DNA of 64,000 bases from Hyphomicrobiales bacterium (GCA_965198845.1 CBDAQD010000001.1:20733-84732), one strand, 5' to 3'; shown: positions 5,807 through 24,737, counted from the stretch's first letter. Numbers and translations: made by a program. The notes: a model not told the origin generated them from the sequence alone.

Positions 5807-6107
5807 GGGTTTGCTCCTGGGGTTGGGCTCCGGGTCCGCCGGAGCGATGAAGCGCCCAATCCGGGCGCGAAACTCTGGCCGTGCACACACAGTCCTCGCT
5901 TTCCCTGCCGATCTTGAGCATTGTCGGATCGGACAGAGCGAGCACGCCCTGGCGTTCGGCCTGATCGAAGAGCGTGGCGTATGGCTCGCGATCGATATGG
6001 AAGAGACGCATGTCCGGGCAGTGGCCCTTGAGCGTGCAGCCGGAGGTGCGCCCACCCGAAAACGAGACGACGGCGGGACCGTCGAGGCGGTATGGATAGC
6101 GGCTCAT
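5787..6107 (-). pseudogene. Short PP-loop (PAPS reductase-like) ORF, probably an internally deleted remnant
   Basis: MSRYPYRLDGPAVVSFSGGRTSG carries the SGGxxS PP-loop of PAPS-reductase-family proteins that pair with ParB-like genes. The ORF is only 106 aa, jumps straight to a Cys-containing tail (GCTLKGHC...EDCVC), and then runs into the parB-like start. Confidence 0.4.
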
Positions 6108-6217
6108 GGCTTCGCTCCCGCCCACGTTCCGGTGTCCTGAAAGGCGAGGATGAAGTCGGCTGCCTTCGAGGCTTGGCTCGCCGCGCGGAAGATGGCGCGA
6201 TTGTCCTCTCTCAGGAC
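6104..6217 (-). pseudogene. ardC: ardC fragment 3 of 3 (C-terminal 37 codons plus stop)
   Basis: My translation is VLREDNRAIFRAASQASKAADFILAFQDTGTWAGAKP*. It continues the ArdC C-terminus in frame from fragment 2. Its stop overlaps the ATG of the PP-loop ORF (ATGA). Confidence 0.8.
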
Positions 6218-6255
6218 TTCGATTTATCGCGAGGTGAAGATTATGCGGAGGAAGT
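6218..6255. repeat. RIT-1 left terminal inverted repeat (38 bp)
   Basis: ttcgatttatcgcgaggtgaagattatgcggaggaagt is the exact reverse complement of 10026-10063. It contains two direct sub-repeats, TTATCGCGAGG and TTATGCGGAGG. Confidence 0.9.
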
Positions 6256-6366
6256 TTTCATTGGCGCCGTTTTTTCAATGACTTGGACGGCGTTTCAGCC
6301 TCTCATACTGCGCATTATTTGAGATCGGTGGTTCCCTTGGTTGATCAACAAACCAAGGAGAACCAG

Positions 6367-8966: not shown

Positions 8967-9961
8967 AAACCGATCCGCTCCCAGAATTGCTGCGCTTGTT
9001 CTTCACCGACTGGATGGTCCAGCAACGCAACGCGTCTGTTCACACGGTCAAGTCATATCGCGATACCTGGCGACTCTTTCTCCGATTTGTCGCGGAACGG
9101 CACGGCAAGCCTGTTTTCCGTCTCACCTTGAGCGAATTGACCGCCGCCGAAGTCGCTACTTTTCTCAAACACCTCGAGGAAGACCGCGGTGATACCATTG
9201 GTACGCGAAATTGCCGCCTGTCGGCCTTGCGCAGCTTCTTCGGCTTCGTGGCAACGCGCGACCCGGAACGCATGGCACAATGCGCACAGGTCCTTAACAT
9301 CCCAACAAAGAAGGCGCCGACCCGTGCCCCGGACTACCTTGAACCGGAAGAAGTACAGGCAATCCTTGCTCAACCGGATCGGTCAATGTTGATCGGTCAG
9401 AGGGACCATGCCCTGCTGTCGTTCCTCTACAACACAGGTGCCCGCATCCAAGAGGCGCTTAATCTATGCCCACAGGCCATCAGGTTCGATGCACCAGCTT
9501 GCGTGCGATTGCACGGAAAGGGCCGTAAGGAACGCATCAGCCCGCTCTGGCCAGAAACGGCTGCTCTGCTGAAATCACTGCTTGAGCGAACGCCAAGGCC
9601 TGACGATGCGCCCCTCTTCGTGAACCGCTACGGCAACCCGTTAAGCGCCTCGGGGGTGCGCTTCAAGCTGGCGGAGTATGTGAAAGCGGCGGCGGTGGAT
9701 GTGCCGACGCTAGCGAAAAAACATGTGACACCACACAGCTTCCGGCATGCAACAGCTGTGCATCTGGTTGCCGCGGGCGTGGACATCACCGTAATCCGAA
9801 GCTGGCTTGGCCATGTCAGCCTGGAGACGACAAACCACTACGCGCAGGCCAACCTGGAGACCAAACGCCGGGCATTGGAACAAATTGAGAGCCCAAAGAC
9901 TGGCAGCCCACCTTCATGGCGACGCGACCAAAGCGTGCTCGACTGGCTCGATACGCTCTGA
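8963..9961 (+). CDS. Tyrosine recombinase RitC (RIT-1)
   Basis: ATG overlaps the ritB stop (ATGA). 332 aa with GARIQEAL...HSFRHATAVHLV...LGHVSLETTNHYAQA. Clearly homologous to the third gene of RIT-2. Confidence 0.9.
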   Translation: MKTDPLPELLRLFFTDWMVQQRNASVHTVKSYRDTWRLFLRFVAERHGKPVFRLTLSELTAAEVATFLKHLEEDRGDTIGTRNCRLSALRSFFGFVATRDPERMAQCAQVLNIPTKKAPTRAPDYLEPEEVQAILAQPDRSMLIGQRDHALLSFLYNTGARIQEALNLCPQAIRFDAPACVRLHGKGRKERISPLWPETAALLKSLLERTPRPDDAPLFVNRYGNPLSASGVRFKLAEYVKAAAVDVPTLAKKHVTPHSFRHATAVHLVAAGVDITVIRSWLGHVSLETTNHYAQANLETKRRALEQIESPKTGSPPSWRRDQSVLDWLDTL

Positions 9962-10025
9962 TGCAAGCCTCAAATTATGCGGAGGAAAGAAGATCGAAAG
10001 GACAGAAAACTAAGGGCCGCGCCCG

Positions 10026-10089
10026 ACTTCCTCCGCATAATCTTCACCTCGCGATAAATCGAATAATGACGACCTCGTCATTATTCGAT
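10026..10089. repeat. RIT-1 right terminal inverted repeat (10026-10063) plus a 15-bp-stem perfect palindrome (10058-10089)
   Basis: atcgaataatgacga-cc-tcgtcattattcgat. The distal arm (10075-10089) is the missing outer tip of the left IR (see findings). Confidence 0.9.
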
Positions 10090-10257: not shown

Positions 10258-10324
10258 GTTATGCCGACATCGGCATAACGGCCATAATGCCGATATCCGG
10301 ATTATGCCGAGCTAGCCGCTGAGA
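10254..10324. repeat. RIT-2 ritC-side end: 14-bp-stem palindrome (10254-10283) plus terminal IR (10283-10324)
   Basis: ggccgttatgccga-ca-tcggcataacggcc, followed by cataatgccgatatccggattatgccgagctagccgctgaga. It contains four of the eight copies of the TWATGCCGA motif. Confidence 0.9.
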
Positions 10325-10366
10325 GTACGGCTAGCCCGACTTGGTCACTTCAAAATGTCGGCATAA

Positions 10367-11371
10367 TCAGAGGGCTTCCAGGAATTCCAACAAGCTGTCG
10401 TCCGCAATGTATCGACCCTTGGGCGTCTTGCGATTCATCCTCTTCGTCTTGGCCATCGCCTTTTCTTTAAGCTCGATATCGGCGTGGACGTATATTTGCG
10501 TTGTTTCCACCGACTCGTGACCCAGCCACAAAGCGATTACCGTTCGATCGACCCCATTCTGTAATAGGTGCATCGCTGCAGTGTGACGGAGCACATGCGG
10601 TGAGACCCGCTTCTTAGATAGTGTCGAGCACGTTTCTGATGCGATCAAAACGTGTTTCCGGACAATGCGTTCTAAAGCATCTCGACTTAGTGGACCTCCA
10701 CGGATGCTGACAAATAGCGGCTCTGATGGTCTACGACTACGCTCCTTCAGCCATGACTTAAGAGCCGTGACTGTGTCTCCACGAAGCGGTGTCGCACGTT
10801 CTTTTCGCCCCTTTCCAAGACATCGCACGACAGCACCGTGTCCAAGTTCCACGTCATTGATTTTGAGCGCCAACACTTCCGAGACCCTCAAACCCGTCTG
10901 GACCATCATCTGCAACAGAGTACGATCGCGGCGGCCGAACCAGGTCGACAGATCAGGCGCGTCGATCAGCGCTTCGGCCTCATCATAAGTCAGAAAGTCG
11001 ATTGCTCTTTTCACATACCGTTTCTGGGGCATCGATAAGATACGCTGGCAGTGATGAAGCAGTTGTGGTTCTTTGTCCGCGACATATTTGAAGAACGACC
11101 TGATGGCTGCGAGGCGCGTGTTTCGAGTTCTCGCGCTGCTACCCCTCGTGTCTTCGAGATGGATTAAAAACCGCCCGACCAGATCGGCGTCAATATGGTC
11201 TAAATGCAGCTTTGTTGGCGCTCTTCCGGTATCACTCGTCGCAAAGCGCAGGAGCATCCGGAAGGTGTCGCGATATCCAGCAATTGTGTTCGGACTGGCA
11301 TTCAGCTGACCAACGAGCCGCTCTGTAAAAAAGCGCTGTAAGTAGGGCGGAAGTGGATGCTGCTTGATCAT
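10367..11371 (-). CDS. Tyrosine recombinase RitC (RIT-2)
   Basis: 334 aa with GLRVSEVL...HVLRHTAAMHLL...LGHESVETTQIYVHA. Its ATG overlaps the ritB2 stop. Confidence 0.9.
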   Translation of the reverse strand: MIKQHPLPPYLQRFFTERLVGQLNASPNTIAGYRDTFRMLLRFATSDTGRAPTKLHLDHIDADLVGRFLIHLEDTRGSSARTRNTRLAAIRSFFKYVADKEPQLLHHCQRILSMPQKRYVKRAIDFLTYDEAEALIDAPDLSTWFGRRDRTLLQMMVQTGLRVSEVLALKINDVELGHGAVVRCLGKGRKERATPLRGDTVTALKSWLKERSRRPSEPLFVSIRGGPLSRDALERIVRKHVLIASETCSTLSKKRVSPHVLRHTAAMHLLQNGVDRTVIALWLGHESVETTQIYVHADIELKEKAMAKTKRMNRKTPKGRYIADDSLLEFLEAL

Positions 11372-12315
11372 CGCTGCCTCCGCTTCTTGAGCAGTGCCTC
11401 AGAACGCTTCGCCGCCAACTGCATCAGTTCGGGGACAGCTTCGATGTACCAGTATGTGTGCACCGGTTTTTTGTGGCCCAGAAAGGCACTTAGCTTGTAC
11501 ATTTCCTGATCGACATCGACGCCTGCCTTGTACCAACTGATGATCGTGTGCACGGCGAACGTATGTCGAAGATCATGGATACGAGGTCCAACACCATGCC
11601 TTTTGTAGCCCGCAGGATTGCGATGTCCGAGTCGGCGTCCGACTTGGGCAAATGTGTACCGCGCCCCACAGTCGCCTAGCGGCGCACCGGTGTGACGCAC
11701 AAAGATCGGACCACTATTGAGGCCGGTGATATGCCGTCTTAACTCCAGATACTGCCCCAGACGATCAACTGTGGATGGTGAGAGCGGCAAGCATCTCTCA
11801 CTCCCCGACTTGGACTTCAGGATTTCCAAGGTGCCCGCGGATAAATCGATATGATCTTTTTGAAGGCCGAGCGCTTCATTTATCCTCAAGCCGGTGACGG
11901 CGATCAGTCCAAAGAGCGTTGACGCCGTCAGGCCACGGAAGCCGTACTCAGAAGGCAAACGAGCCGCTTCTGCGACGATGTCTCGGATCTGTTGCTCGCT
12001 ATAAATGTAGGGTTTGGAGCGTTTAGGTTTTCCGATTGCAATATCGCGAGGCGGGATCTCCGACTTGCCGTCTATTCCACGCAACCATGTCGCAAACTTC
12101 CTGACCATGGATACGCGGGCGGACCAGGTGTTGGTGTCCGCAGCGCCATAGTCTCGCTTCCAATCTTTGAAGAGCGCGCTCGTTATATGCTCTGCATTTC
12201 GTTCATCTGCATATGCAGTGAACTTCTTCATGACGCGCTCGGTAAAACTAAGATCGTACCCGAGGGCACGACGTATCTCGAGATACTCGTATAGTCGTTC
12301 AGTGAGTGTTTTCAT
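11368..12315 (-). CDS. Tyrosine recombinase RitB (RIT-2)
   Basis: 315 aa with GLRINEAL...HDLRHTFAVHTI...LGHKKPVHTYWYIEA. Its ATG overlaps the ritA2 stop. Confidence 0.9.
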   Translation of the reverse strand: MKTLTERLYEYLEIRRALGYDLSFTERVMKKFTAYADERNAEHITSALFKDWKRDYGAADTNTWSARVSMVRKFATWLRGIDGKSEIPPRDIAIGKPKRSKPYIYSEQQIRDIVAEAARLPSEYGFRGLTASTLFGLIAVTGLRINEALGLQKDHIDLSAGTLEILKSKSGSERCLPLSPSTVDRLGQYLELRRHITGLNSGPIFVRHTGAPLGDCGARYTFAQVGRRLGHRNPAGYKRHGVGPRIHDLRHTFAVHTIISWYKAGVDVDQEMYKLSAFLGHKKPVHTYWYIEAVPELMQLAAKRSEALLKKRRQR

Positions 12316-13559
12316 CGCGCATCCTCCTGATCTGGCCAGGAAGGGGCGAGCGCTCGCAACGCGTCGACATCGTATTTGGCATAGATCGAAGTCGTCGACG
12401 GGGAACGATGTCTGAGGACATCGCTGATTTCCTCCAGAGAGGCGCCGTTCCGAAGCAGATCGGTCGCCAGACTGTGCCTTAAAATATGAGCGCCGACATA
12501 AGACTGCGGCGGGGAGATACCTGTCGCATTATAGGTTTTGCTCAAGATCCAGTTTACGATCTGGGAGTCGGCAAAGTTCTTGAACGGCGCTCTCGTCGAG
12601 ACGAAGAGATATCGAGAGGATCCACGTCGTTCATTCTTGATATAGTCGACGATCGCTGTTCCGACCTCATGGGGTAACGGCATTCGATCATGCAATCGAC
12701 CTTTACCACGGATCAGAACTTCACCCAGGCGCCAATCTAAGTCCTCCAATTTAATCGCGATGATTTCAGGTCCGCGCAGGCCCATCCGCGCCATCATCAT
12801 GATCATCGCATGGTCACGGCGTCCCGTTTTCGACGATAGCCGAGCCGCTTCGATGAGCCGGTTGATATCCTCCGGTGGCAAATACCTTGGGATTTTGCCG
12901 TTGCCGATGGTCCGTTGAGACGGAACTTGCTCAGCCAAGTTCTTGTCCGTGTGCTTCGCCCAATACAGGAAGCGAAAGAACGACCTGAGATGCGACGCGA
13001 TCGACTTGTCCTTAGCGATACGCGCGTTCTTACGCCTGCGCATCATATAGTCGGTAATGTCCTGAGCCTTTAGACCCTTGAGGTCGCCAAGACGGGGACC
13101 GTATTTGAACGTCAGAAATCCATGCGCATATCTCACGCAGCCATAAATCGTCGCCTCGGATAATCCTCTTTGTTCGCGAAGGTAGGCCTCATACTCGCGC
13201 ATAAGAACGGCGCGTTTAGACTTGTCGACCTTCTGGGGTCGTGCTGCAACCTCGCCTGCCTCGATCAGAAAATCCACGAAACGATTGATGCAATAAACGC
13301 CATAAGTGGCTTTTGAACCTTTATGCAGGCCGAGAACGGTCTGGATCAATCCATCGATCGCGCTTTCATCTAATTTCGACAAATAGATGCCACGCTTCAC
13401 GGCAAATTCTGCGAACCGTCGACAATGCGATCGATACGTGCCGACCGTTGCCGGTGTATAGCCTTGTCGATCAAGAAACACCGTGAACTCATCGATGCGT
13501 TGACTGTAGCGCTTTGCTTCCCGCTCTGGCAGCCGGTGGACGTTTCTATTTCTAGGCAT
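12312..13559 (-). CDS. Tyrosine recombinase RitA (RIT-2)
   Basis: 415 aa with GLRGPEII...HILRHSLATDLL...LRHRSPSTTSIYAKY. Confidence 0.9.
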   Translation of the reverse strand: MPRNRNVHRLPEREAKRYSQRIDEFTVFLDRQGYTPATVGTYRSHCRRFAEFAVKRGIYLSKLDESAIDGLIQTVLGLHKGSKATYGVYCINRFVDFLIEAGEVAARPQKVDKSKRAVLMREYEAYLREQRGLSEATIYGCVRYAHGFLTFKYGPRLGDLKGLKAQDITDYMMRRRKNARIAKDKSIASHLRSFFRFLYWAKHTDKNLAEQVPSQRTIGNGKIPRYLPPEDINRLIEAARLSSKTGRRDHAMIMMMARMGLRGPEIIAIKLEDLDWRLGEVLIRGKGRLHDRMPLPHEVGTAIVDYIKNERRGSSRYLFVSTRAPFKNFADSQIVNWILSKTYNATGISPPQSYVGAHILRHSLATDLLRNGASLEEISDVLRHRSPSTTSIYAKYDVDALRALAPSWPDQEDAR

Positions 13560-13665
13560 TTTTTGAACTCCTTCTCTTTGCTCAGAAGGAACGAATGCCT
13601 CATCGGTGCGTTGTCTGGGATTTTTATGCCGACTCTTTAGTGCGTCGGCCCCGCAGCTAACAGCG

Positions 13666-13708
13666 TCTCAGCGGCTAGCTCGGCATAATCCGGATATCGG
13701 CATTATGT
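13666..13708. repeat. RIT-2 ritA-side terminal inverted repeat
   Basis: tctcagcggctagctcggcataatccggatatcggcattatg(t) is the reverse complement of 10283-10324. Confidence 0.9.
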
Positions 13709-14373
13709 CCTAATTCGTGAAAACAGGTGCTGTAATAATTTATCTGGTCACGGAATGCGGGTTGCGGCGGCGCCTGAATAAAGTCTTCGCTCGGCACGAA
13801 AAAAGCCCTGTCGCCGCCGATACGAAAATCGGCGCCGGTGGCTTCAATAAGCTGTTCGGCGCGGGGGATGATTTCGCGCTCCGGCAAGGGCTGCACATTG
13901 GCTAAAAATTCATCGGGCAAGCCTTCACACTGGTCGGCGTTAAACACTGTGTAGCGTTTCAAAAAGCCGACGCGCTGCGGGTCGTCTCCTGTTTGCTGCG
14001 CTTTTTCTGCCTCGGCTTTGGGTATGAAGGTATCGGCGTAACAAATTGCAGTGCCGCGTTCGCCTTTTCTGACGCATCCGCCTAGCGACAAGGCTTGTTT
14101 GAAGGTTAGCCAGTGTTGGGTGGTTCTCGCGGTTTCGATAGCCGCTCCCCACAGCAACAAGATGTTGATGCCGGAATAGGTATTGCCGGTTGCCGCGTTT
14201 TTCGGAAGTCCCATCGGGGTCTTGATGTGGTCGCGTCCCCAAGGCTGAACCCAAGGCACTGCGCCAGCCTCAAGCTGCGCAATAATCTTGTCTGTCACGT
14301 CTTGATAAAGGTCGCGGCGCGGTGCGCTGCTGCGCTTGCCTCTTGCGCTTTGGTCGCGGTTCTTGGTGGCCAT
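13708..14373 (-). pseudogene. ardC: ardC fragment 1 of 3 (N-terminal 222 codons)
   Basis: MATKNRDQ...VPWVQPW...YSGINILLLW...YYSTCFHELG. This is the ArdC ssDNA-binding N-domain plus the start of the zincin motif. The track ORF then reads into the RIT-2 IR (..H NADIRIMPS*). AGGAGA lies upstream of the ATG. Confidence 0.85.
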
Positions 14374-14607
14374 GTCTCGTCTCCTGTTCTGCCCCCGTCA
14401 CCAGTTTCCCCCCGGCGGGAGGGGGTGGGCGGCAGGAACGCCGCGCAGGCGTGGGGCATCAGGGCCAAGGCAGCTTGCTGCCGGTGGGCAAGTTTCTTGG
14501 TAGGAGACCTTTGACGACCTATACGGATGAATACCCAAGAGGCTTGCGCATGGGCCGCCCCGCGCCAGCGTGGCTGACGCCCACACCCGAGCGCCTGGGG
14601 AAACCTC

Positions 14608-14629
14608 AAAAAAGCCGCGCGTCAGCGCG
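14608..14629 (-). terminator. Possible rho-independent terminator upstream of ardC
   Basis: On the minus strand, a 5-bp stem CGCGC / GCGCG (14625-14629 pairing with 14616-20) with a UGAC loop, then GC UUUUUU (plus-strand A-run 14608-14613). The stem is short. Confidence 0.35.
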
Positions 14630-14799
14630 TCTGCTGTTTCAATACGGTAAAGACGGCGCAAGCCGAGGCGCAGTCGAGGGAAGGATCATTACCGGATGGC
14701 CAAGACCCGATTCATCGGGGCTTGGGGAGGCGTGTAAAGCACGCCGAGTAGAGCCCGGTCGCGGCCTGCCGCGATGCGCTAGGTTTCCAAAAAGCGCAG

Positions 14800-16875
14800 C
14801 TAAGCTAATTTGGTGTAAGAAATCCCTTCCAGTCTAGCTTTTTCCAAAGCTATCAGCAGAACAGTGCATTGTTTTTCTGAGGGAACTTTCTGTGGTATGT
14901 TCTTGGCAATATTGAGGACACCAACTTCTTTTGGGGTGAAAATTCTTCTTTTGGAGCCTTCATCGAGTATGTAATTCCACTCAGCCGAAGTGATTTCAAA
15001 TACTTTCTTCTGAGCATCAATCCCATCATCAATTTTCTGAACATTCTTGGCCTGCCGCTGCCTTGCCTTGGTTTCTTCCTCGGTGATCGAGTCGCTCCAA
15101 AAACCATCCGAAATACCTGCAAGAAATTCATCCAGATCAGACATGATATTCGTCCAGCAAGCATCCTTCTTACACCACTCGGTGACGTTCGAAAATCCGG
15201 AAGGAGGCTCAGTGATATGATCATTTACAAACTTCGCAGCCGTTTCCAGAACAGATATAAATTCTGTTGAAAGCGTCTGCGTGTTCCAGATTTTCATAAA
15301 ATCAATATTTGACTCTTTTCTTCTACAGCTCTCTGCAATAGCCGCGATAGTGTATGCAACGATATTTGCGCGATACCCTCCATTGTACCATTCCTGTGCG
15401 GAAACCATGCGTTCAGTTGCTCTGAAAACAATGCCCCGTGCAATAGCGCGCTTGAAGTAGTGTTCATTGAAAGATTCAGACGACTTTGCCCACTCCTTTC
15501 CAATTCGTTTAGCGTATTGGGCAAAGTTCTTTTGGGCACCCAGATTCACCCACTTTGGATGCTCATCCCAGACATTCTCAAACTTGGCTAGGTCAGTTTT
15601 GCTGAACATCTGTGGTTTTGGGTTTTCAGCCTTGAATTTTTTCTTCTCGCCTGGCGTGAGTTTGGATTGAGCATCAGCATACTGACCGCGCGCTCGTTCA
15701 TAAAACCACTTCGTTTCACGTTGTGCACCTCTAACCGCAGGAGCCCAGAGCCGACGGGAAAAGTCCTCCATTCGAATATGGAATGGATGGTTTGAAAAGA
15801 AATCAGCTGCATTTACGCGATTTTGTGTATTCGCATATTCTGAAATCCGGGGAACGACGGTCTCGCTTTCTTCGCTATCAATTACAGAAAGTTTGAGTTG
15901 AACAAAAATTCCCTCAAGCGAAGCCTTATCCTTTCTTGCAGTATGGAAGAGTGAAGCTGTCGTTTGTCCGCCATTCACGATTTGAAGATCTGTTATCGAA
16001 ACGAGCTCCAATCCCTGGGGCGTAGAACGAGTCTCGACGCTTTGAGCGGTAGCGGTGATACCGTTGTTGTAGGCGAAGAACATTTCCGGCTCGGTAATTA
16101 TTGTGGACCGGATACCCTTATTTACTTTTCCTCGTGCCTGGAGAAAGCATCTGACGTTTTGTTCCAGAAGCCTTGCTCCGTATCTTCCGTATAATTCCGC
16201 CAGAACAGTTGCAGGCATTACGATAAGATATGATTGATAGGCGTGTGAGCCGAGATGTGCCGGAAGGCACGGAATACCGTATCCGAAGCGTTCATCAAAA
16301 TTTATATCCAATGGCTCCTTGTGGCCGCGTGCCGCTCGTTGTCTTTGCAACCGTGTAATATCCCAAATGTGGAATGAACATGGCACATTGCAAACTTCTG
16401 CATCTTCTACTTGTTGTAACCTTTCACTCAGAGCCCGCTCTGAGAATAGAATACAATTCAGCCTGACGATTGTTTTTCCACGATCAGCGATTTCCCTTGC
16501 GAGACCATACTCCGGTGAGGTTTCCTCCAATTCGCGGTGAAGATTCTTTACAAGACTTGCTTCGAAAAAATTTGACAACCGCCGGAAGGTTGCATCCACA
16601 TCTGTTCTTGTAAGCGAGTTGAGTTTTTCACGGCAATCAAAGTCCGCAATAAACAGATCGAGAACACCGTCATCGTTAAACCAGTATCCATCAACTCGCA
16701 TTCCTCGCGGTGCCCGATAGTGACAAAACTCAAAACCTTCTACAAATCCTGTATCGACAAGTTCATCCGCCAGTGCATTCATGAACTCGGCTAACTGAAA
16801 ATCGCTTCGAGCCTCAGCCGCCGCCAGCATCTCCTGTCGAAAATCATGGAAAAACTCGGAGACAGTCTCACTCAT
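14800..16875 (-). CDS. AIPR-family (abortive infection phage resistance) protein
   Basis: Start MSETVSEFFHDF (ATG 16875) overlaps the upstream stop by 8 nt. 691 aa. The central region FFAYNNGITATA...LQIVNGGQTTASLFH resembles the AIPR family core. Confidence 0.7.
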   Translation of the reverse strand: MSETVSEFFHDFRQEMLAAAEARSDFQLAEFMNALADELVDTGFVEGFEFCHYRAPRGMRVDGYWFNDDGVLDLFIADFDCREKLNSLTRTDVDATFRRLSNFFEASLVKNLHRELEETSPEYGLAREIADRGKTIVRLNCILFSERALSERLQQVEDAEVCNVPCSFHIWDITRLQRQRAARGHKEPLDINFDERFGYGIPCLPAHLGSHAYQSYLIVMPATVLAELYGRYGARLLEQNVRCFLQARGKVNKGIRSTIITEPEMFFAYNNGITATAQSVETRSTPQGLELVSITDLQIVNGGQTTASLFHTARKDKASLEGIFVQLKLSVIDSEESETVVPRISEYANTQNRVNAADFFSNHPFHIRMEDFSRRLWAPAVRGAQRETKWFYERARGQYADAQSKLTPGEKKKFKAENPKPQMFSKTDLAKFENVWDEHPKWVNLGAQKNFAQYAKRIGKEWAKSSESFNEHYFKRAIARGIVFRATERMVSAQEWYNGGYRANIVAYTIAAIAESCRRKESNIDFMKIWNTQTLSTEFISVLETAAKFVNDHITEPPSGFSNVTEWCKKDACWTNIMSDLDEFLAGISDGFWSDSITEEETKARQRQAKNVQKIDDGIDAQKKVFEITSAEWNYILDEGSKRRIFTPKEVGVLNIAKNIPQKVPSEKQCTVLLIALEKARLEGISYTKLA

Positions 16876-17863
16876 CGGGCGGTCTCCACAGTTCTTCCGC
16901 CAAACACTCATGAACTGCAATTTCCTGAAGCTGAAGGTCATATGATACCTTCAGGATAGCTCCCGGCAGATCGGAGCGTACTAGCCGTGGGAACTCATCT
17001 CCTACCAAGAACACTTTGATTCCCGTTAAAGTCAGCGCAGGGTTATCGTATTCTCTGATCTCAGCATATCCGACTGCTGCAAGTTTATCGGAAAATAATT
17101 CAATCGCGTTGTCATCGGTGAGTGACGAATATACATTTCTTATAAGGTCATTTAGAGAAATGGAATGATCCGATGGTGATCGTTCAGCAAGTCTGTAAAC
17201 GCAGAGAAATAATTTCGGACAAACGGTTTCAAGCTGATCTTCTGAAGAGATATGAACCGCATTGCGCGTATTGCCATAAAGTGACTTAATTTCAACGGCA
17301 CGATCAAAATATAGGAAATCCTGCTGTTGACGATCCGGACCATGCCAAGCTTCAAGGGCTGCCATTTCGTTATTGAAAAGCCTGATGAGTTCTTGCAGAA
17401 ATTTGACCTCACAGAACAGACCGCGCTGTTCTTCAACGGATAAAATGCGGAGTGACCGTCCTGCAAGAAATGCTTTCCAGCGTTTCAGGTGCTTGAAAAT
17501 CACATTCAAAAGGATGGAAGAATCTTCAATAGAAGCGACAGCTTCAATAATGGTGTTACACAAAGCGTAGAAGAGATCGAGGTCGATTTTGCGTTCCAGA
17601 CGTAGAACAAAGAATTGAGCGCCGATTGATTCTAGAAGCCGGAGGTCTGTGCTCACCCCATGTATAGTGACCTTCTCATTCTGGAACTGATCAGCAAGGT
17701 CACCCTGAAGGCCGATCAGAAAAAGGCAGCAGTTGTTTGAGTCTTTGCCCCAGAACATTTCCATGCAGGACTCATGGCCTACCTTCCGGACGTTATAGTC
17801 CTGGTCCGGTGTCTTGATCTCAGTCCATGGAGTTATGCTCTCAGTCACCATAATCCTCGTCAT
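16868..17863 (-). CDS. PD-(D/E)XK motif protein (putative nuclease)
   Basis: The start is uncertain (ATG 17863 or 17851); both overlap the Z1 stop. The candidate catalytic stretch is QQQDFLYFDRAVEIKSL (D...ExK). About 330 aa. Confidence 0.6.
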   Translation of the reverse strand: MTRIMVTESITPWTEIKTPDQDYNVRKVGHESCMEMFWGKDSNNCCLFLIGLQGDLADQFQNEKVTIHGVSTDLRLLESIGAQFFVLRLERKIDLDLFYALCNTIIEAVASIEDSSILLNVIFKHLKRWKAFLAGRSLRILSVEEQRGLFCEVKFLQELIRLFNNEMAALEAWHGPDRQQQDFLYFDRAVEIKSLYGNTRNAVHISSEDQLETVCPKLFLCVYRLAERSPSDHSISLNDLIRNVYSSLTDDNAIELFSDKLAAVGYAEIREYDNPALTLTGIKVFLVGDEFPRLVRSDLPGAILKVSYDLQLQEIAVHECLAEELWRPPDE

Positions 17864-20510
17864 CTTCCGGCGCATCCACTGATGGACCGTGCATTTTTTC
17901 AACCCATACCTTGTTTGCCACAACTTCAACTTCAGTGGTGTAGTCTCCCGGGGGATAACTGATGCCGAATGCAGGAACCCGTTCCTGAATTGAGTCCCCC
18001 TTTCCGAGATTGAGAGAATGGAGCATGAGCAATGGTTTATTCCTCACTTCCCGATAGTGAGTGTCTGATGGTTTCTTGCCATCATCGGCAAGCGATTCCG
18101 CTCTTTCCAGTTGAACAGGCGAAAGCCCGAGCTTTTCATCGCCTCTGCTGGCAACACGGTTTTTGCTGGTACGCCAAGCACCATCAGGTATCGTGGCGCT
18201 TCTTCTATCCTGAGTCCCAAGGCGATAACTGCTCATATCCTCATCCCGATCAGAAATGGATATAAGGAGGACATCGGAATTGGAATGGTCTTCAGAGATT
18301 GCACGAAGATATTCCAAAGCAGCAGCTTTCGTATTTGCAAAAGAAGGATGGACCTGAAACCGACTAAGAAACTCCCCGAGTTCATCAGTTGCGGCGTCGG
18401 CAATAAACCAACCCTTTGGTCCGGGTGTGGCAGGAAATATTTTTTCCGAGCCAGCACCAAACCCGGTTCGCCAGTATTCAGAAATCAATTCTTCATTCTT
18501 TTGATTGATTTCATCCTCCTCAGGCAGAACATAGCTTTCTACGATCCTTCCGCTGAGGTTTGTTCTAACCGTAAACTTTTCTCCGGCGCGCATCTTGTTC
18601 ACGGCTGTGATCAGCAAACGATCCGGATGTGCTTTGACGTAAAGTCCGAATTGTCGTGGACTGAGACCATCACGTCTCATTCGTTTTATCTGCTGCCGCA
18701 ACTCTTCGGAGGCATCCGATATATGCCCGTACCAATCAATAGAATCGGGAGAAAGGTGTATTCGGCATACGTCATCATAGCCGGGGCGGTATCCAAACCA
18801 CCGACCCATCTGCATTAGAGTGTCGTACATGCGGGTATTGCGGTACATATAGCTGACAGACAAACCTTCGATTGTCAGACCACGTGAAAGACTAAGGCCG
18901 CCTATCGCAATAGCCGTAAGGCCAATACCGTCTTTTTCGTACTTTTTGAAATCAAGTTTTTCATCGGATTTGCTGTTCACAACAAAAATTCGGAGAGTTT
19001 CAAATACTCCGTTCAACTCCGTCTTAATTTCTTCCCACTTATGTCCACTACCAGAATACTGCTCATCATAAGCGGACCGCAGGTTTGCCATATACGGGTC
19101 TTGAGAGGCTATATTTTCCGGCATTGCATAGTTTGCTTTAACCGCCTGACGTAGTGACTTTTCATAGATACTTACAAAATCACGTATCCTATTTTGCACA
19201 GATACAAAGCGAGACGCATTGATCATCATTGAAGCATGTTTGTTCTTTTGCTTGCGCAGATTTCGTATTGCCCTTGCGACAATAAATTGATCGATTGCTC
19301 TGTATAATGATGGCGGAAGGTCTTTTATATCGTCGTCTTTTTTGTGCGAAAAGGGTAGGTATTCCTCAGCATCCTCGATAGGGATAACAGGGTCCGGATT
19401 AAAATTCTCCTCTTCAAAAACCCTGGCTGGGCCAAAATAAGTATTGGGCGCATCAAGGCAGTAAATGAAATCTCTTGGAAACAGCTCCTCGTGCGCCACA
19501 TCATCGTAGGATTCCGGGTTAATGAAAATATTGGCGAACGGAGTTGCTGTATATCCAACATAACAGGATTTATCAAAAAGACCGAGAATCTTTCTGATCA
19601 TTGTATTAGTACGTGTAGGATCAAGGTCTTCCTTATTTGTATTTATTGACGCATTGTCCGCTTCATCGTCGATGAGAAGCATAGGTACATCGGATATGCG
19701 ATCTCCTCCCTTTGCATTCATTTCTTTCAGCCAATTGAAGAGAGATTCAAGAGTGCGTACATTCTTCTTAATGACAAGAATTATCGGTTTGCTGAAATCG
19801 TTGAGTTCCCAGCCACTCTGGTCAGCCGTTTTTTTGTTGAAATCATTGTGGACGTTCGTGAGGGTTGCCGGATGAGGGTAGTTAGCGGCAGTCAAACCTA
19901 CTCCAACAGTCTGCCGGTCCTCTGGATTGCTTGAGCGCCCCACAAAACCTTCATCAACACGCTCCTGGGTCTGAGTTCTAAGATTATTATGAATGCCCGC
20001 AATCACAACGATGAACTTGTATCCGGCATCGGCTGCTCGTGCGATAAGTCCCAAATAATTGGCTGTCTTGCCTGATTGAACGTGACCAATAACGAGCCCA
20101 CGACGATCCCAGCGCGTGCCTTCGCTCGATGGATCTTGCAGATGTCCAAGAATTTTACCGGAAACGTCACCAAGTGACCGTACAATGTTCGGATGAAATC
20201 CCTGTTGTTTCAAATATGCTTCATATGCCTCTGAATAAGTCCACTGGATGTCATCACGCTTGAAAACCCATTCTTCATCATGCTCTGCTTCGGTATCTAT
20301 AAGCGAAATTCCCTGACCCATGCGGCTGTCCACAGCGATCATTGCCTCACCAATGATGCCTTCCAGATCACCGGTGTAATTCAACATTTCAGCGAGTTGC
20401 TGTGCTTTGGTCTTTATGACTTCGGGGGTAGGCGTTTCCTCCAGCGTCGATAACGCACTTATCAGTGAGCTCGTGAAGTTTTTTTCGGCTTCAAGTTGAT
20501 TGTGAGCCAT
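17841..20510 (-). CDS. Z1-domain protein (SF2/DEAD-like NTPase)
   Basis: 889 aa. Walker A GHVQSGKTANY, Walker B MLLIDDEADNAS, GYTATPFAN, and a motif VI-like SLSRGLTIEGLSVSY typical of Z1 proteins. Its ATG shares 1 nt with the upstream stop (TGATG). Confidence 0.8.
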   Translation of the reverse strand: MAHNQLEAEKNFTSSLISALSTLEETPTPEVIKTKAQQLAEMLNYTGDLEGIIGEAMIAVDSRMGQGISLIDTEAEHDEEWVFKRDDIQWTYSEAYEAYLKQQGFHPNIVRSLGDVSGKILGHLQDPSSEGTRWDRRGLVIGHVQSGKTANYLGLIARAADAGYKFIVVIAGIHNNLRTQTQERVDEGFVGRSSNPEDRQTVGVGLTAANYPHPATLTNVHNDFNKKTADQSGWELNDFSKPIILVIKKNVRTLESLFNWLKEMNAKGGDRISDVPMLLIDDEADNASINTNKEDLDPTRTNTMIRKILGLFDKSCYVGYTATPFANIFINPESYDDVAHEELFPRDFIYCLDAPNTYFGPARVFEEENFNPDPVIPIEDAEEYLPFSHKKDDDIKDLPPSLYRAIDQFIVARAIRNLRKQKNKHASMMINASRFVSVQNRIRDFVSIYEKSLRQAVKANYAMPENIASQDPYMANLRSAYDEQYSGSGHKWEEIKTELNGVFETLRIFVVNSKSDEKLDFKKYEKDGIGLTAIAIGGLSLSRGLTIEGLSVSYMYRNTRMYDTLMQMGRWFGYRPGYDDVCRIHLSPDSIDWYGHISDASEELRQQIKRMRRDGLSPRQFGLYVKAHPDRLLITAVNKMRAGEKFTVRTNLSGRIVESYVLPEEDEINQKNEELISEYWRTGFGAGSEKIFPATPGPKGWFIADAATDELGEFLSRFQVHPSFANTKAAALEYLRAISEDHSNSDVLLISISDRDEDMSSYRLGTQDRRSATIPDGAWRTSKNRVASRGDEKLGLSPVQLERAESLADDGKKPSDTHYREVRNKPLLMLHSLNLGKGDSIQERVPAFGISYPPGDYTTEVEVVANKVWVEKMHGPSVDAPEDDEDYGD

Positions 20511-21988
20511 CAGACTGCCTTCCTGATAAATTCCTGAATGATGTCATTATGATTTTCAAAGATTCTTGTAGAGCGCGCCACTTCTTCGAACGCATCCGCA
20601 TCAAACGAATTATCATCGAAAAGAATACGCTTCAGCATTTCGAGTTTGTCCTTCAATTCGCTTTCCTCGAAATTCAACTGAGTCATATCTGCCGGATGAG
20701 TCGAGTAATCCGAATAGATCATCTCTACAGGCAGAGATGCTGAAATGAGCTGGAGTACTGTGCTGAACTGCTTTCCCTGATCTTCATTCAGTGTCTGAAG
20801 AATAGATTTTATGAGGGGATGATCCGAATTGATCTCATAGTGAATAGAACCTTTTTCCGCGAAACGATCCCAAACCGGAGCGGAAACTTCATCATAGAGT
20901 TTCTTACCTCTTCCCCTATGCACAACGGTGCTTCGCTCTGAGATTCTGGCGAGAATCTGACGCAGCCTTTCCCGAACCTGATACGGAGGACGAGCGCGAG
21001 ATTTTTTTATGTCGATGGTCCAGGTTTCATCAAGCGCATTGGGAAAGTCGATCTGAACACGGGCAAGTTTTGTAGACTCGCCCTTTGGAATAAGGCGGAA
21101 CCAGTCACCCCACGCCATCAACCTACCATTTCGGTATATATAAGCACCCTGGTTGGAAATGAAATCGCTACGATCCTGATAGAAATCATACTCAGATGCA
21201 GTCAGCTTGCTATGATGGGGCAGAATAAACGGCTGCATTCTGATCACATAGTCATCAAGCCGGACGATTTCTTCTGGCATGACCTGCGTGGCCGCATTTT
21301 TGCGGCAGAATGGGTCAAAAGCCTGAATGGAGTGCCCATTCAGCGTGATCGCAAGTTTCTTCCTACCTCTGATTTCACCGGACAGAAAACGATGAAAAAC
21401 AAGTGATAGATGTCGTTCGACTGTATCAAGCTTTTCATTGACGACTTCAGAACGCCGTTTTCCACTCTGCTCTTCCGTGAGTCTGTCGAGGTCGCGCCAT
21501 AGAACGAGCGTGCCTTGATGTTCAATTTCTTGTGTGAAGGGCAGAGCCTCTATTTCACTCTGATCAAGAATGCTGATTATCCAGTCATCGTGTTCGCTTA
21601 CCGATTTAAGATCCCATTCCGCAGCGGACGTAACGTTATTCTGAACGCTTACAACAGTTAGGCGGCGGCATTGCGAAAACGAAGCTGTTTTGAGGCCAAG
21701 CCCGAATCGCCCTAAGTCGGTTGGCATTCTCTCAGTTCTGGAATGAGATGACCCATGTCGCATCGCCTGAATGAGTTCTTCTGATGACATCCCATCGCCA
21801 TCATCAATGATTGCTAACAGAGGTTCCTCCGCAGTGAGATCACAGAAAATTCTGATCGCAGTTGCATTGGCTGATATACTGTTATCAATAAGATCAGCGA
21901 TTGCTGTTTCGAGAGAATAACCAAGGTCTCTAAGCGACTCACTTAAACTGGCTGCACTAGGTGGCAGATGATATTCACGGGCCATCAT
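20510..21988 (-). CDS. GHKL-superfamily ATPase (MORC/MutL-like, HATPase_c_3 type)
   Basis: Start MMAREYHLPP (ATG 21988 or 21985) overlaps the vsr stop. Bergerat-fold boxes AIADLIDNSISA, IIDDGDGM and GRFGLGLKTAS. About 492 aa. Confidence 0.8.
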   Translation of the reverse strand: MMAREYHLPPSAASLSESLRDLGYSLETAIADLIDNSISANATAIRIFCDLTAEEPLLAIIDDGDGMSSEELIQAMRHGSSHSRTERMPTDLGRFGLGLKTASFSQCRRLTVVSVQNNVTSAAEWDLKSVSEHDDWIISILDQSEIEALPFTQEIEHQGTLVLWRDLDRLTEEQSGKRRSEVVNEKLDTVERHLSLVFHRFLSGEIRGRKKLAITLNGHSIQAFDPFCRKNAATQVMPEEIVRLDDYVIRMQPFILPHHSKLTASEYDFYQDRSDFISNQGAYIYRNGRLMAWGDWFRLIPKGESTKLARVQIDFPNALDETWTIDIKKSRARPPYQVRERLRQILARISERSTVVHRGRGKKLYDEVSAPVWDRFAEKGSIHYEINSDHPLIKSILQTLNEDQGKQFSTVLQLISASLPVEMIYSDYSTHPADMTQLNFEESELKDKLEMLKRILFDDNSFDADAFEEVARSTRIFENHNDIIQEFIRKAV

Positions 21989-22403
21989 CACCTGCCTTAA
22001 TGAAATTTTCAAAACAGTTCAAAAGAGCTGGTGGGTTTTTTTTGAGTTCGCATTCCCACGCAACAAATACACGCCAACCTTGCTGCTCAAGCTGAGCCCG
22101 AACCCGCTTGTCTCTGGCAACATTGTCGTTGAATTTTTTCTGCCAGAAATCTTGGCGCGTCTTTGGCGTTGTCGCCAGAGAGCATCCTTCATGCCTATGC
22201 CAATAACAGCCATGCACAAAAGCAACTGATCTGTGTTTGGGAAGAACAATGTCCGGTTTGCCTGGAAGGTCTTTGCAATGAAGTCTGAAGCGGTATCCGG
22301 CTCTGTGCAGAAGAGAGCGAAACTTTAATTCCGGCTTCGTATCTTTTCCCCGGATACGTGACATATTCCAGCTTCGCTTTTCGGCGGAAATCGTGTCAGG
22401 CAT
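21975..22403 (-). CDS. vsr: Very short patch repair endonuclease
   Basis: Start MPDTISAEKRSWNMSRIRGKDTKPE (ATG 22403, 8-nt overlap with the dcm stop). FVHGCYWHRH motif. 142 aa. Confidence 0.9.
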   Translation of the reverse strand: MPDTISAEKRSWNMSRIRGKDTKPELKFRSLLHRAGYRFRLHCKDLPGKPDIVLPKHRSVAFVHGCYWHRHEGCSLATTPKTRQDFWQKKFNDNVARDKRVRAQLEQQGWRVFVAWECELKKNPPALLNCFENFIKAGDDGP

Positions 22404-23982
22404 TTTTCTTTCTCCCTGACAAAATGAGTTCAGAGACAATTTCCGCTATCTGTCTTGCGAGATAGGGTGGGACGGCATTGCCGACTTGATGATATTGAGA
22501 AGTTCGCGGCCCTTCAAAATGATAGTTATCGGGAAATGTCTGCAACCTCGCGGCTTCGCGAACTGTCAGACTGCGGCATTGGAGCGGGTCATAGTGAATA
22601 AAATAATGCCCATCCTTCGAAATGTGGGATGTGATCGTAGTTGAATAAGACCCCGGAATCTGGACCCGGAATCTGTCGCAGAACATTTTGCCCGCTCTTC
22701 CAAGCTCCACATTTTTATGTGCTGGAAGCAGACTTTCGGGAAAATCCCCCAGCTTCGGACTTGTTCCGCTCACTTTGGCGAATGCGGAACAGAATAGATA
22801 CCGGTGCAGATCAGAAGCCATGTGACCACGAGATTCATGGCTGGTTAGAACTGGAAGTTCTGCATCATAAAGAAAATTCAATGCGGCATGGTTCGAGCGG
22901 AATTTTTTCGGGTATTTTTTGGAACTTCGAGATTCGGGATACTTCGTTTTCTTCTCAACCGCTGCCTTTATCTCCTTAATAAGTTTTCCCGTATATTCTG
23001 CGCCATTTAGCTGTTTTCTGAATTTTTCTATGTCTACATCACATAGCGCTTGCCTCCAGTTTTTTGCAGTATCTTTGTTGCGAGAAAGTCCGCTTCTTAT
23101 GGATGGCAGGTTGCCTATCGTCTGCTTTACTGTTGGACCGGCATGTTTATCTAGCTGCCTAGGTGTAACCTCAATATCGTCACGCACGCCGACGAAAAAC
23201 ATACGATGTCTTGCTTGTGGAACGCCGTACTCTTCCGCTCTAACCACAAATTGCCTCGGATCAATATCGCCTAGCGCCTGATCCGGCTCCGTCAAAGAAA
23301 ACAGTTTATAGTTGTAGCCATTACTTCTGCCGGTAATTGCTTTAAGTGGATCAGAGAGATCAGAAACTATCCTGCCGACAACAGACTCCCCTTTAACCGT
23401 TGCGGATAGGAGGCCTTTGACATTCTCCATTACAAAGACTGGCGGCCAGTGATCGCTTATAATTTTGAGGTATTCTTTATAAAGGAAATGCCTTACGTCT
23501 TTTTCAAAATCTGGGTTACCCATCATACGGGAGCGTCCCACCAGTGAATACGCTTGGCACGGTGGGCCGCCCACCAAGACCCAAGATTCTTGACCTTTTA
23601 ATTTCGAACTAATTTTTCTCTTAATGAGATCATGGTTCCCTTCGCATAATGTAAGTTTTAGCGCGCCTTTTGCTGCCTGTGAGAACTTTTTTTTATGCTT
23701 GGCAATCAGTTCATCCAACTGAATTTCTTTTTTTAAGTATTTGAAGTATTCTTCAGGTATTTCGTCATCTTCGAATGAGCGAATGAAATGCCTCAACAGC
23801 AAGGTCTGATGAGCAAACTCATTGTTTTCAATTGATAAAGCATTGGAAAAAACGGTTTTGCCTTTAGAGTTTTTCAGCGCGGCAAAACCTTCTCCCAACC
23901 CTCCAGGGCCCGCAAACAGGTCTATCACCGGTATTCCGGCACAGCGCTTCTGGTCGCTTTTCCTTCTACCAGCGGCCATCAT
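22396..23982 (-). CDS. dcm: DNA (cytosine-5)-methyltransferase
   Basis: Start MMAAGRRKS (ATG 23982, G-rich RBS). Motifs IDLFAGPGGLGEGF (I), GGPPCQAYS (IV), VMENVKGL (VI), REAARLQTFPDNYHF and GNAVPP (X). The track start at 24057 would overlap the HTH gene. Confidence 0.9.
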   Translation of the reverse strand: MMAAGRRKSDQKRCAGIPVIDLFAGPGGLGEGFAALKNSKGKTVFSNALSIENNEFAHQTLLLRHFIRSFEDDEIPEEYFKYLKKEIQLDELIAKHKKKFSQAAKGALKLTLCEGNHDLIKRKISSKLKGQESWVLVGGPPCQAYSLVGRSRMMGNPDFEKDVRHFLYKEYLKIISDHWPPVFVMENVKGLLSATVKGESVVGRIVSDLSDPLKAITGRSNGYNYKLFSLTEPDQALGDIDPRQFVVRAEEYGVPQARHRMFFVGVRDDIEVTPRQLDKHAGPTVKQTIGNLPSIRSGLSRNKDTAKNWRQALCDVDIEKFRKQLNGAEYTGKLIKEIKAAVEKKTKYPESRSSKKYPKKFRSNHAALNFLYDAELPVLTSHESRGHMASDLHRYLFCSAFAKVSGTSPKLGDFPESLLPAHKNVELGRAGKMFCDRFRVQIPGSYSTTITSHISKDGHYFIHYDPLQCRSLTVREAARLQTFPDNYHFEGPRTSQYHQVGNAVPPYLARQIAEIVSELILSGRKKNA

Positions 23983-24029
23983 GCCCCCTTTTTCTTTTTT
24001 GAGGCGCGCGCCTCTTCGTCGATCCAAGA

Positions 24030-24173
24030 TTAGATTTCCGTTCGCCGAAAACGCCACGCACCACCAACCTTGAAACCCGGCAACTTGTCTTCGCCGGCAA
24101 GGCGATAGGCGGTTTTCTTGTTGATGCGCAGATACTCGGCAACTTCATCAATGGTCATGATGTCATCTGCCAT
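24030..24173 (-). CDS. 47-aa excisionase-family HTH protein (candidate controller of the operon, or an Xis remnant)
   Basis: Below the track cutoff. My translation is MADDIMTIDEVAEYLRINKKTAYRLAGEDKLPGFKVGGAWRFRRTEI*, a complete HTH_17-type domain (KxGxxWRF). It lies 47 nt upstream of dcm. Confidence 0.7.
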   Translation of the reverse strand: MADDIMTIDEVAEYLRINKKTAYRLAGEDKLPGFKVGGAWRFRRTEI

Positions 24174-24483
24174 GTCTGAAATCTGTCCCCAAATCAGTCC
24201 TTTTGAGAAAGTTAGGGAAATTTGAGGAAGCTGACAAGCGTAAACATGAACGCAAGCAATACTTCGGATTACTTATTTGTCCGTGCTTGGATGAATTTCA
24301 AATGGAAGCAAAGCAAGAATAAACTTACTTCTTCAACTCGGAAATTTCATTGCGAGTTTGATCTACCATTGCGGAGATTTTCGATCTGAATATTGATTTT
24401 ACATGCTAGAGATTCTGGCGTGTGAGAATCTTATAATTCGGCTTGCTAAGCTCTGATACAAAGCCAAGTACAGTATCGGAAAA

Positions 24484-24560
24484 TGGCGGTCCCGGCGCGA
24501 TTCGAACGCGCGACCTTTCGCTTCGGAGGCGAATACTCTATCCAGCTGAGCTACGGGACC
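24484..24560 (-). tRNA. tRNA-Arg (anticodon CCG), CCA encoded
   Basis: The reverse complement folds as GGTCCCG TA GCTC AGCTGGATA GAGT A TTCGC CTCCGAA GCGAA AGGTC GCGCG TTCGAAT CGCGC CGGGACC GCCA. All four stems pair and the anticodon loop is CU-CCG-AA. Confidence 0.92.
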
Positions 24561-24693
24561 AAAGAGATTTGGTGATACCTATGTGTTACCTAACGATTTA
24601 CCGCAAGTCATTTCCGAAAATTCGACTTTCAGTAAATCTTTGAAACTGAACTCCTTTTTATCAATTTCGATCATCCAAACTCACGCTTGACAT

Positions 24694-24737
<44 letters not shown>

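Follow-up and report, generated by a model that had tools for sequence, protein, structure and literature searches.

The anti-phage system mzaABCDE originates in Gao et al. (2020), is called validated in PMC9523054, and RefSeq annotates mzaA to mzaE as an anti-phage system. In a 2022 preprint, the E. coli mzaABCDE genes protected 10^3-10^4-fold against T4(C) and T4(hmC) but far less against glucosylated T4; purified MzaD cut DNA, and the substitution D187A weakened both its nuclease activity and the defence. No growth arrest was seen with mzaABCDE at any multiplicity of infection of the three T4 variants, and the authors concluded that the DNA is targeted directly. Here we describe an operon of seven genes at positions 14800-24173 of a 64,000-nucleotide stretch of DNA from a Hyphomicrobiales bacterium (GCA_965198845.1, CBDAQD010000001.1:20733-84732; the window in what follows). 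To judge from its sequence, the locus is almost certainly an anti-phage defence operon of the Mza type, in which the counterparts of MzaB, MzaC, MzaD and MzaE are linked to a C5 cytosine DNA methyltransferase (Dcm) and to the T:G mismatch endonuclease Vsr.

This methylase-linked architecture has already been described twice by comparative genomics. Iyer, Abhiman and Aravind laid it out computationally in 2008 as the third kind of prokaryotic MORC operon (PMC2292703), and Miller et al. (2022; PMC9523054) presented a putative "type II" system of the same architecture that is about 20% identical to mzaBCDE. A GCAGC modification motif has been seen in Listeria strains whose mza system encodes a methyltransferase (PMC10687267). 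Single components have counterparts elsewhere: the H-subunit of CglI is a DEAD-Z1 translocase on double-stranded DNA that is needed to activate cleavage (PMC5861437), and defence by VcSduA depends on its GHKL ATPase as well as on its PD-(D/E)XK site (PMC12137116). Searches of the literature and the PDB yielded no mechanism, solved structure or trigger for Mza. The locus in the window is thus a member of a known and partly validated family, and the claim of an earlier note on this DNA that the four effector genes had only been predicted is outdated, given the validation of mzaABCDE reported in PMC9523054 and the defence and MzaD cleavage data of the preprint.

The seven co-directional open reading frames lie on the minus strand in the order HTH_17, C5 cytosine methylase, Vsr, MORC-like GHKL ATPase, DEAD-Z1, DUF4420 and AIPR protein (Table 1). 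Each of these assignments, first made from the sequence alone in the earlier note, is upheld by Pfam with E-values from 1e-14 to 5e-105, which indicates that the genes are not chance open reading frames. The PADLOC name Mza, which the note had put forward, also proved apt, since the matches of the four effectors to the MzaB, MzaC, MzaD and MzaE models are in each case the best or the only one. As far as sequence can tell, the locus is a homologous subfamily of Mza and not the canonical system or a set of equivalogs, because its NCBIfam scores stay far below the equivalog cut-offs (MzaB, 328 of 850 bits; MzaC, 520 of 1500; MzaD, 112 of 420; MzaE, 336 of 1050), its proteins are 29-46% identical to those of the E. 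coli mza locus L081 (MzaC 34%, MzaD 29%, MzaE 31%, a partial MzaB 46%), no window protein matches an MzaA model of PADLOC or NCBIfam, and the upstream genes are different. The E. coli MzaA protein combines ankyrin with Sigma70_r2/r4, and its place is occupied here by HTH_17, Dcm and Vsr. The compact, colinear B-C-D-E order is common to the present locus, to related loci and to E. coli.

Overlaps between the genes were measured from ATG starts with a purine-rich, Shine-Dalgarno-like stretch upstream, and all figures given earlier for the seven minus-strand genes were reproduced exactly: 8 nt for dcm/vsr (vsr ATG at 22403; the dcm stop ends at 22396), 14 nt for vsr/GHKL (ATG at 21988), 1 nt for GHKL/Z1 (ATG at 20510), 11 or 23 nt for Z1/DUF4420 (ATG at 17851 or 17863) and 8 nt for DUF4420/AIPR (ATG at 16875). 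All motifs quoted before for the encoded proteins are present, and their catalytic positions vary little or not at all among 59-74 homologues. The GC (guanine plus cytosine) content of the operon block is 46.1% (43-48% per kb), versus 61.4% in the remaining window, and the value of 38-42% stated previously needs correction. The borders of the block are sharp and lie at 14800 and ~24700, so that low-GC DNA extends beyond the operon up to the latter position. No strong sigma-70 promoter consensus was found in the region upstream of the operon.

The effector cassette and its methylase module

Mza-type systems are common: a scan with one genome per species returned at least 585 relatives, and searches with MzaC and MzaE gave at least 8000 database matches each, the top 120 of which are full length, about 64-70% identical and distributed over several phyla. 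Relatives in phage are rare, with 18 distant ones in IMG/VR and six unannotated fragments in GenBank phage records. We analysed 80 loci from many phyla. The order MzaB-C-D-E is held in them wherever the contig allows, and the commonest layout, Dcm-Vsr-MzaB-C-D-E, is the same as that of the window. The pairwise identities of MzaB, MzaC, MzaD and MzaE between loci are tightly correlated (Spearman 0.89-0.94). The four effectors, whose joint inheritance the earlier note had marked as a point to check, are therefore co-inherited; MzaB-E appear to form one functional unit, a reading for which the kept order, the correlated identities and the invariant motifs all count.

The upstream genes behave differently. 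Identities of Dcm and Vsr correlate with each other at a Spearman coefficient of 0.61, and those of either protein with the Mza proteins only weakly, at 0.30-0.41. When the loci L021 and L041 are compared, MzaC, MzaB and MzaD are 94%, 90% and 82% identical, but Dcm and Vsr only 46% and 43%. In clear cases such as this one, the methylase and Vsr constitute a separate, exchangeable module beneath the tightly co-evolving MzaB-E set. The position and orientation of the Dcm and Vsr genes also vary between loci.

Despite these exchanges, a methylase is always there. Among the 48 loci with a complete MzaBCDE set and at least 3.5 kb of flanking DNA on both sides, 41 possess the Dcm subfamily of the window and 41 possess Vsr; the seven loci without this subfamily have a different PF00145 methylase beside the cassette, so that a C5 methylase adjoins it in 48 of 48. 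Since C5 methylase genes are usually few in a bacterial genome of several megabases, a rough estimate puts the chance of finding one within a few kb of a random gene at around 1%; measured against this figure, the company of a methylase in every locus argues for a strong functional link and substantiates the earlier suggestion of a tie between the effectors and cytosine methylation. This universal link, combined with module exchange, is new here and provides a concrete and testable lead on the mechanism of the family. In two of the seven loci, the distant Mza-type loci L071 (6594-8513) and L074 (6591-8510), the gene directly upstream of mzaB encodes a 639-amino-acid C5 methylase with a fused C-terminal domain resembling the helix-hairpin-helix (HhH)/FeS region of endonuclease III. 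Neither locus has a Vsr gene, and the fused glycosylase-like domain possibly provides a T:G repair function that replaces Vsr.

When the window proteins are compared across loci, MzaE is the most conserved (~65% identity) and MzaD the least (~45%). In MzaB, whose best sequence matches in the PDB are MORC2/3/4, the residues D40/N44, D70xGxG74 and G101xxGxG106 (numbering of the open reading frame) are invariant in 74 of 74 homologues. MzaC, which also matches the PADLOC model Helicase_II (9e-40), has the motifs GKT, DDEAD, TATP and YDTLMQMGRWFGYR invariant or near-invariant among 74 homologues; the last of these covers residues 562-575, each of which is kept in 71-74 of them. MzaD is the probable DNA-cleaving subunit, to go by its sequence. 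Its residues E148, D178, E187 and K189 are invariant in 72 of 72 homologues, D178 aligns with D187 of E. coli MzaD, the residue mutated in the preprint, and an AlphaFold2 model (mean predicted local distance difference test, pLDDT, 88.9) has a secondary structure compatible with a nuclease core. A Foldseek search of this model against the PDB gave no significant neighbour (best E = 8e-3, template modelling score below 0.2), so what supports the assignment is membership of the Pfam family, together with the invariant E-D-ExK residues and the succession of secondary-structure elements. MzaE has more than 150 positions that are at least 95% conserved over 67 homologues. Its AlphaFold2 model, built with 40 homologues, is poor (pLDDT 64, predicted template modelling score 0.38), with an alpha/beta pattern in the N-terminal domain, and Foldseek found nothing in the PDB below E = 0.9; the likeness to the PD-(D/E)XK proteins Can2 and McrC in its top rows is not significant, and we draw no conclusion from it. 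Sequence searches of the PDB with MzaC, MzaD and MzaE revealed no relatives. Dcm carries an insert of ~110 residues between motifs I and IV and a target recognition domain of ~200 residues, scores 142 bits against TIGR00675 (cut-off 100.65), and has its FxGxG, PPCQ, ENV, QxRxR and GNAVPP motifs kept in 58-63 of 63 homologues.

We also searched for an effector protein that might read the specificity of the methylase. At matched MzaC identity (0.82-0.90), the identity of MzaE drops from 0.84 to 0.69 and that of MzaB from 0.84 to 0.73 between two Dcm clusters. We do not rely on this divergence because it effectively represents one evolutionary event, in regions that are already variable.

Two loci deserve mention for their surroundings. 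In the E. coli locus L081 (NZ_CP025840.1), the canonical mzaB gene (4355-7206) is split by an IS421 insertion, and a Mrr_cat/NA-iREase1 restriction-endonuclease gene is located just upstream of mzaA. In L075, genes for a Schlafen AlbA_2/HATPase_c_4/Fic-like_C protein and an HD-domain protein (5363-6832 and 16948-18630) flank the Mza-type cassette, which may represent a defence-island neighbourhood.

Table 1. Features of the Mza-type operon and its borders (window coordinates)
Feature	Position	Strand	Support or remark
HTH_17/excisionase-type small DNA-binding protein, MAD1-like, 47 aa	24030..24173	-	Pfam HTH_17 1e-14
C5 cytosine DNA methyltransferase (Dcm), 528 aa	22396..23982	-	Pfam DNA_methylase 9e-46
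Vsr T:G mismatch endonuclease, 142 aa	21975..22403	-	Pfam 6e-28; TIGR00632 144.5 bits (cut-off 97.85)
MzaB-like MORC-type GHKL ATPase, 492 aa	20510..21988	-	HATPase_c_3 3e-36; PADLOC MzaB 1e-86
MzaC-like DEAD-Z1 superfamily 2 (SF2) helicase-like ATPase, 889 aa	17841..20510	-	Z1 1e-76; PADLOC MzaC 1e-129
MzaD-like DUF4420 PD-(D/E)XK protein, 327 aa	16868..17851	-	DUF4420 2e-63; PADLOC MzaD 2e-23
MzaE-like AIPR protein, 691 aa	14800..16875	-	AIPR 5e-105, AIPR_N 6e-43; PADLOC MzaE 1e-80
AT-rich leader 5' of the operon, 36-39% GC	24174..24483	-	Direct repeat CTTYCTCAAA, two copies at 24202-24230, just before the HTH start
Terminator-like GC hairpin followed by T-run	14616..14629	-	~170 nt past the mzaE stop; pattern match only
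Complete tRNA-Arg(CCG) inside the low-GC block	24484..24560	-	ARAGORN; Rfam tRNA 66.8 bits, minus strand only; identical in L001
44-nt 5' fragment of a second tRNA-Arg(CCG), tRNA positions 1 to ~43	24694..24737	-	Chromosome/island junction

Candidate mechanisms

The reading that we favour, with a probability of roughly 0.55, is that the operon acts by methylation-gated, ATP-driven restriction. Dcm would mark the host DNA with 5-methylcytosine (5mC) at a short motif, Vsr would mend the T:G mismatches that result from 5mC deamination and so limit the mutational cost, and MzaB, MzaC, MzaD and MzaE would form one ATP-driven restriction machine that attacks unmarked DNA. Within this machine, MzaC may function as a translocase on double-stranded DNA, by analogy with the DEAD-Z1 H-subunit of CglI, and MzaB as a GHKL clamp that dimerises, links the binding of ATP to assembly or to looping of the DNA, and gives the nuclease its licence to act. 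The cut itself would be made by MzaD. MzaE would be an essential partner and might act as the sensor or in DNA recognition. The small HTH protein, found in only ~8 of the 63 Dcm-bearing loci, would be an optional regulator like those encoded ahead of methylases in restriction-modification and MADS systems.

Several observations count against methylation-gated restriction. The mzaABCDE systems of E. coli and Salmonella, to which experimental phage resistance is confined, possess the sigma-70/ankyrin protein MzaA and defend without a methylase of their own; since the validated system encodes none, Mza effectors can evidently defend without a dedicated methylase. No recognisable 5mC-reader or sequence-recognition domain was detected in any component, and the relatives of Dcm in the PDB (M.HaeIII, M.HhaI and DNMT1) align over the catalytic motifs only and gave no lead on its target motif. 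The structural route was of little help, given the poor MzaE model and the lack of significant PDB neighbours for the MzaD and MzaE models. The module swaps, finally, do not fit easily with effectors that recognise one specific unmethylated sequence, unless it is the methylase that provides the recognition.

Module exchange makes a fixed sequence reader in the effectors less likely and favours either the methylase as recognition subunit or a sequence-generic reading of 5mC. We raise, as a tentative extension, the possibility that methylase-linked MzaBCDE systems are a distinct class of ATP-dependent restriction enzyme: a conserved engine of four proteins (MORC clamp, DEAD-Z1 translocase, PD-(D/E)XK nuclease and AIPR) without sequence specificity of its own that takes its rule for self and non-self from an interchangeable C5-methylase module. 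Two routes are conceivable under this equally tentative proposal; the methylase could serve as a recognition subunit, like Mod in Type III systems, or the engine could read 5mC density generically. Such a class would explain the swaps of methylase and Vsr under near-identical effector sets and, if real, would offer a prokaryotic model for the response of a MORC ATPase to cytosine methylation. A connection between MORC proteins and cytosine methylation was raised in 2008 for the origin of the eukaryotic MORCs (PMC2292703). The methylase-linked clade is a natural place to ask whether a bacterial MORC ATPase responds to this modification, and what the AIPR protein does.

The explanation that competes best with methylation-gated restriction is a defence independent of methylation, in which MzaBCDE senses a phage-specific cue or a DNA structure, as the methylase-less system of E. 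coli and Salmonella would have to, and Dcm-Vsr is a separate hitch-hiker, for instance an orphan methylase that shields the island from the restriction systems of other hosts, or an epigenetic regulator. That canonical mzaABCDE works without its own methylase agrees with this view, as do the weak correlation of Dcm and Vsr with the Mza proteins, their exchange as a module, and their variable position and orientation. A mere hitch-hiker is difficult to reconcile, however, with a C5 methylase beside the cassette in all 48 loci, even after replacement of the methylase family, or with the commonest layout, whose gene overlaps are those of one translationally coupled operon. E. coli and Salmonella, moreover, carry a chromosomal dcm-vsr, so that in practice the canonical system need not be without a methylase. 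We consider independence from methylation rather unlikely on balance.

A selfish role is a good deal less probable still. The cassette would then act as an addiction module of the integrative element: loss of the island dilutes the methylation, and the long-lived effectors kill the segregant, with phage defence as a secondary effect. The block does occupy the end of a mobile island, where a tRNA integration site and genes of the integrative and conjugative element (ICE) type adjoin it, it recurs almost unchanged between unrelated flanks in a second genome (see below), and the cassette has a lower GC content than its flanks in 52 of 55 loci; but addiction does not exclude defence, and it requires the very same mechanism of methylation-gated restriction. 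Abortive infection, with the AIPR protein as a toxic effector that is released on infection and brings death or arrest before phage release, is suggested by a family name taken from abortive-infection genes and by the match of MzaE to PADLOC AbiU (4e-24, over the AIPR core), but it is just as improbable in view of the arrest-free growth curves of the E. coli system in the preprint and of a dedicated methylase and Vsr that have no obvious role in such a scheme.

The tRNA-proximal block and its sister copy

The operon is carried as cargo by an integrative element, at the end nearest the tRNA gene. Its location between ICE-type genes and a tRNA-Arg gene, as described in the earlier note, is upheld: to the left are a truncated ardC, two recombinase-in-trio elements and, typically found in conjugative elements, genes for ParB_N, DUF736, DUF2840 and S26/TraF peptidase proteins, and to the right of the block is polA. 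A plus-strand tRNA-Arg(TCG) that ARAGORN predicts at 24469-24544 looks like an antisense artefact, given that Rfam supports the minus-strand gene only. The tRNA fragment at the chromosome/island junction lies 133 nt upstream of the complete, differently sequenced tRNA-Arg(CCG) gene, with which it has a 22-nt repeat in common, and departs from the canonical sequence just past the anticodon loop, where the native tRNA-Arg(CCG) of the locus L004 shows the expected continuation. No second copy of the tRNA 3' half, which would indicate the far end of the island, was found within the window. The island seems to interrupt the host tRNA gene behind the anticodon loop; instead of restoring the 3' half, it apparently supplies a substitute gene.

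Positions 13666-24737 of the window (11 kb) match a second genome, represented by the locus L001, at 99.81%, with 21 substitutions and no gaps, and the similarity begins exactly at 24737. Beyond the tRNA fragment, L001 continues with suf genes, versus polA in the window. The window proteins are encoded on a contig separate from that of L001, and the shared part consists of the 11-kb block plus a piece of a recombinase-trio element. That the same end of the element occupies the tRNA-Arg(CCG) gene in both genomes points to a recent transfer. Four synonymous substitutions are found in MzaE and three in Dcm, four non-synonymous and one synonymous in MzaC, one non-synonymous in MzaB and two non-synonymous in Vsr. 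A third cassette, in L004 (66% identical), is positioned just downstream of the native tRNA-Arg(CCG) gene (5962-6038).

Each of the two copies has one nonsense codon, in the HTH gene of the window and in the ardC remnant of L001. The premature stop in the HTH gene, which together with the near-identical block in the tRNA-Arg(CCG) gene of the second genome is new here, is a TAA at 24030-24032 (codon 48) where L001 has GAA; it shortens the protein by 17 residues and leaves a gap of 47 nt in place of the ATGA overlap with dcm. The intact HTH protein of L001 has 64 amino acids, its gene ending in the ATGA overlap, and the homologues in L008 and L060 have 61-65. The truncation probably does not disable the system.

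Further observations concern the mobile surroundings. A tRNA-Ser(CGA) gene is present a few hundred bases past mzaE in L016, L039 and L041, and a tRNA or tmRNA gene occurs within 10 kb in ~20 of 60 scanned loci, which fits cassettes that travel on integrative islands. The two recombinase-in-trio elements of the window (6218-10063 and 10280-13710) are adjacent, contain three tyrosine-recombinase genes each, and are bounded by terminal inverted repeats of 38 nt (100%) and 45 nt (98%). The right repeat of the second element overlaps the 3' end of the anti-restriction gene ardC (13675-14373) and thereby truncates it; most of the C-terminal metallopeptidase domain is missing (profile positions 2-56 of 126 only). 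The L001 copy of ardC has an additional internal stop at codon 133. The part of the second trio element at 10280-12659 of the window is opposite in orientation relative to the Mza block in L001, and the rest is replaced.

Place among known systems

Two defence systems that share single proteins with the locus can be set aside. Only the methylase matches a DISARM model (DrmMII, 6e-89, its best PADLOC model), and the other six products match no Drm model. Likewise, the HTH protein scores 71 bits against NCBIfam MAD1, below the cut-off of 80 for this MADS component (46 bits against TIGR01764 excise), and no other MAD model was matched.

VcSduA, a Shedu system of the paraMORC3 type, resembles the locus in coupling a GHKL ATPase to a PD-(D/E)XK nuclease, both required for defence, but it is a single polypeptide with a DUF4263 nuclease and is without helicase, AIPR protein or methylase. 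CglI/NgoAVII likewise has a C5 methylase and a DEAD-Z1 motor that translocates at the expense of ATP and thereby activates cleavage. Its R subunit is of the PLD/B3 type, whereas the locus has a PD-(D/E)XK nuclease plus GHKL and AIPR partners; neither a PLD nuclease nor a B3-like recognition domain was found in any of the seven products, which places the locus outside that group. A relation of H.CglI to MzaC was not detected by phmmer, for which the two proteins are too distant.

The "type II" system of Miller et al. (PMC9523054) has the same set of components: Z1, a PD-(D/E)XK DUF protein, a cytosine methyltransferase, AIPR, MORC and a putative regulator. According to that paper it is not detected by PADLOC, whereas PADLOC-DB v2 matches the present locus strongly. 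The third type of prokaryotic MORC operon (PMC2292703) matches point for point, with a MORC GHKL protein, an SFII helicase and a restriction-endonuclease-fold E-D-ExK protein. The C-terminal helicase motif DThhQXuRhFG of that description reads YDTLMQMGRWFG here, and its frequent DCM, VSR and AIPR partners are all present. The GHKL half of the correspondence is provided by HATPase_c_3 and by the MORC2/3/4 matches. We see no substantive difference from this operon type, whose 2008 description was computational only.

The locus contains no new component, and its value is that of an intact, compact and recently mobile example with a near-identical sister copy. With mzaABCDE (NF041932-NF041935) it has in common four homologous effectors in the same order and with matching catalytic residues, including the aspartate of E. 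coli MzaD; it differs in that mzaABCDE has the sigma-70/ankyrin protein MzaA, and the locus instead has an HTH protein, a C5 methylase and Vsr upstream of the effectors.

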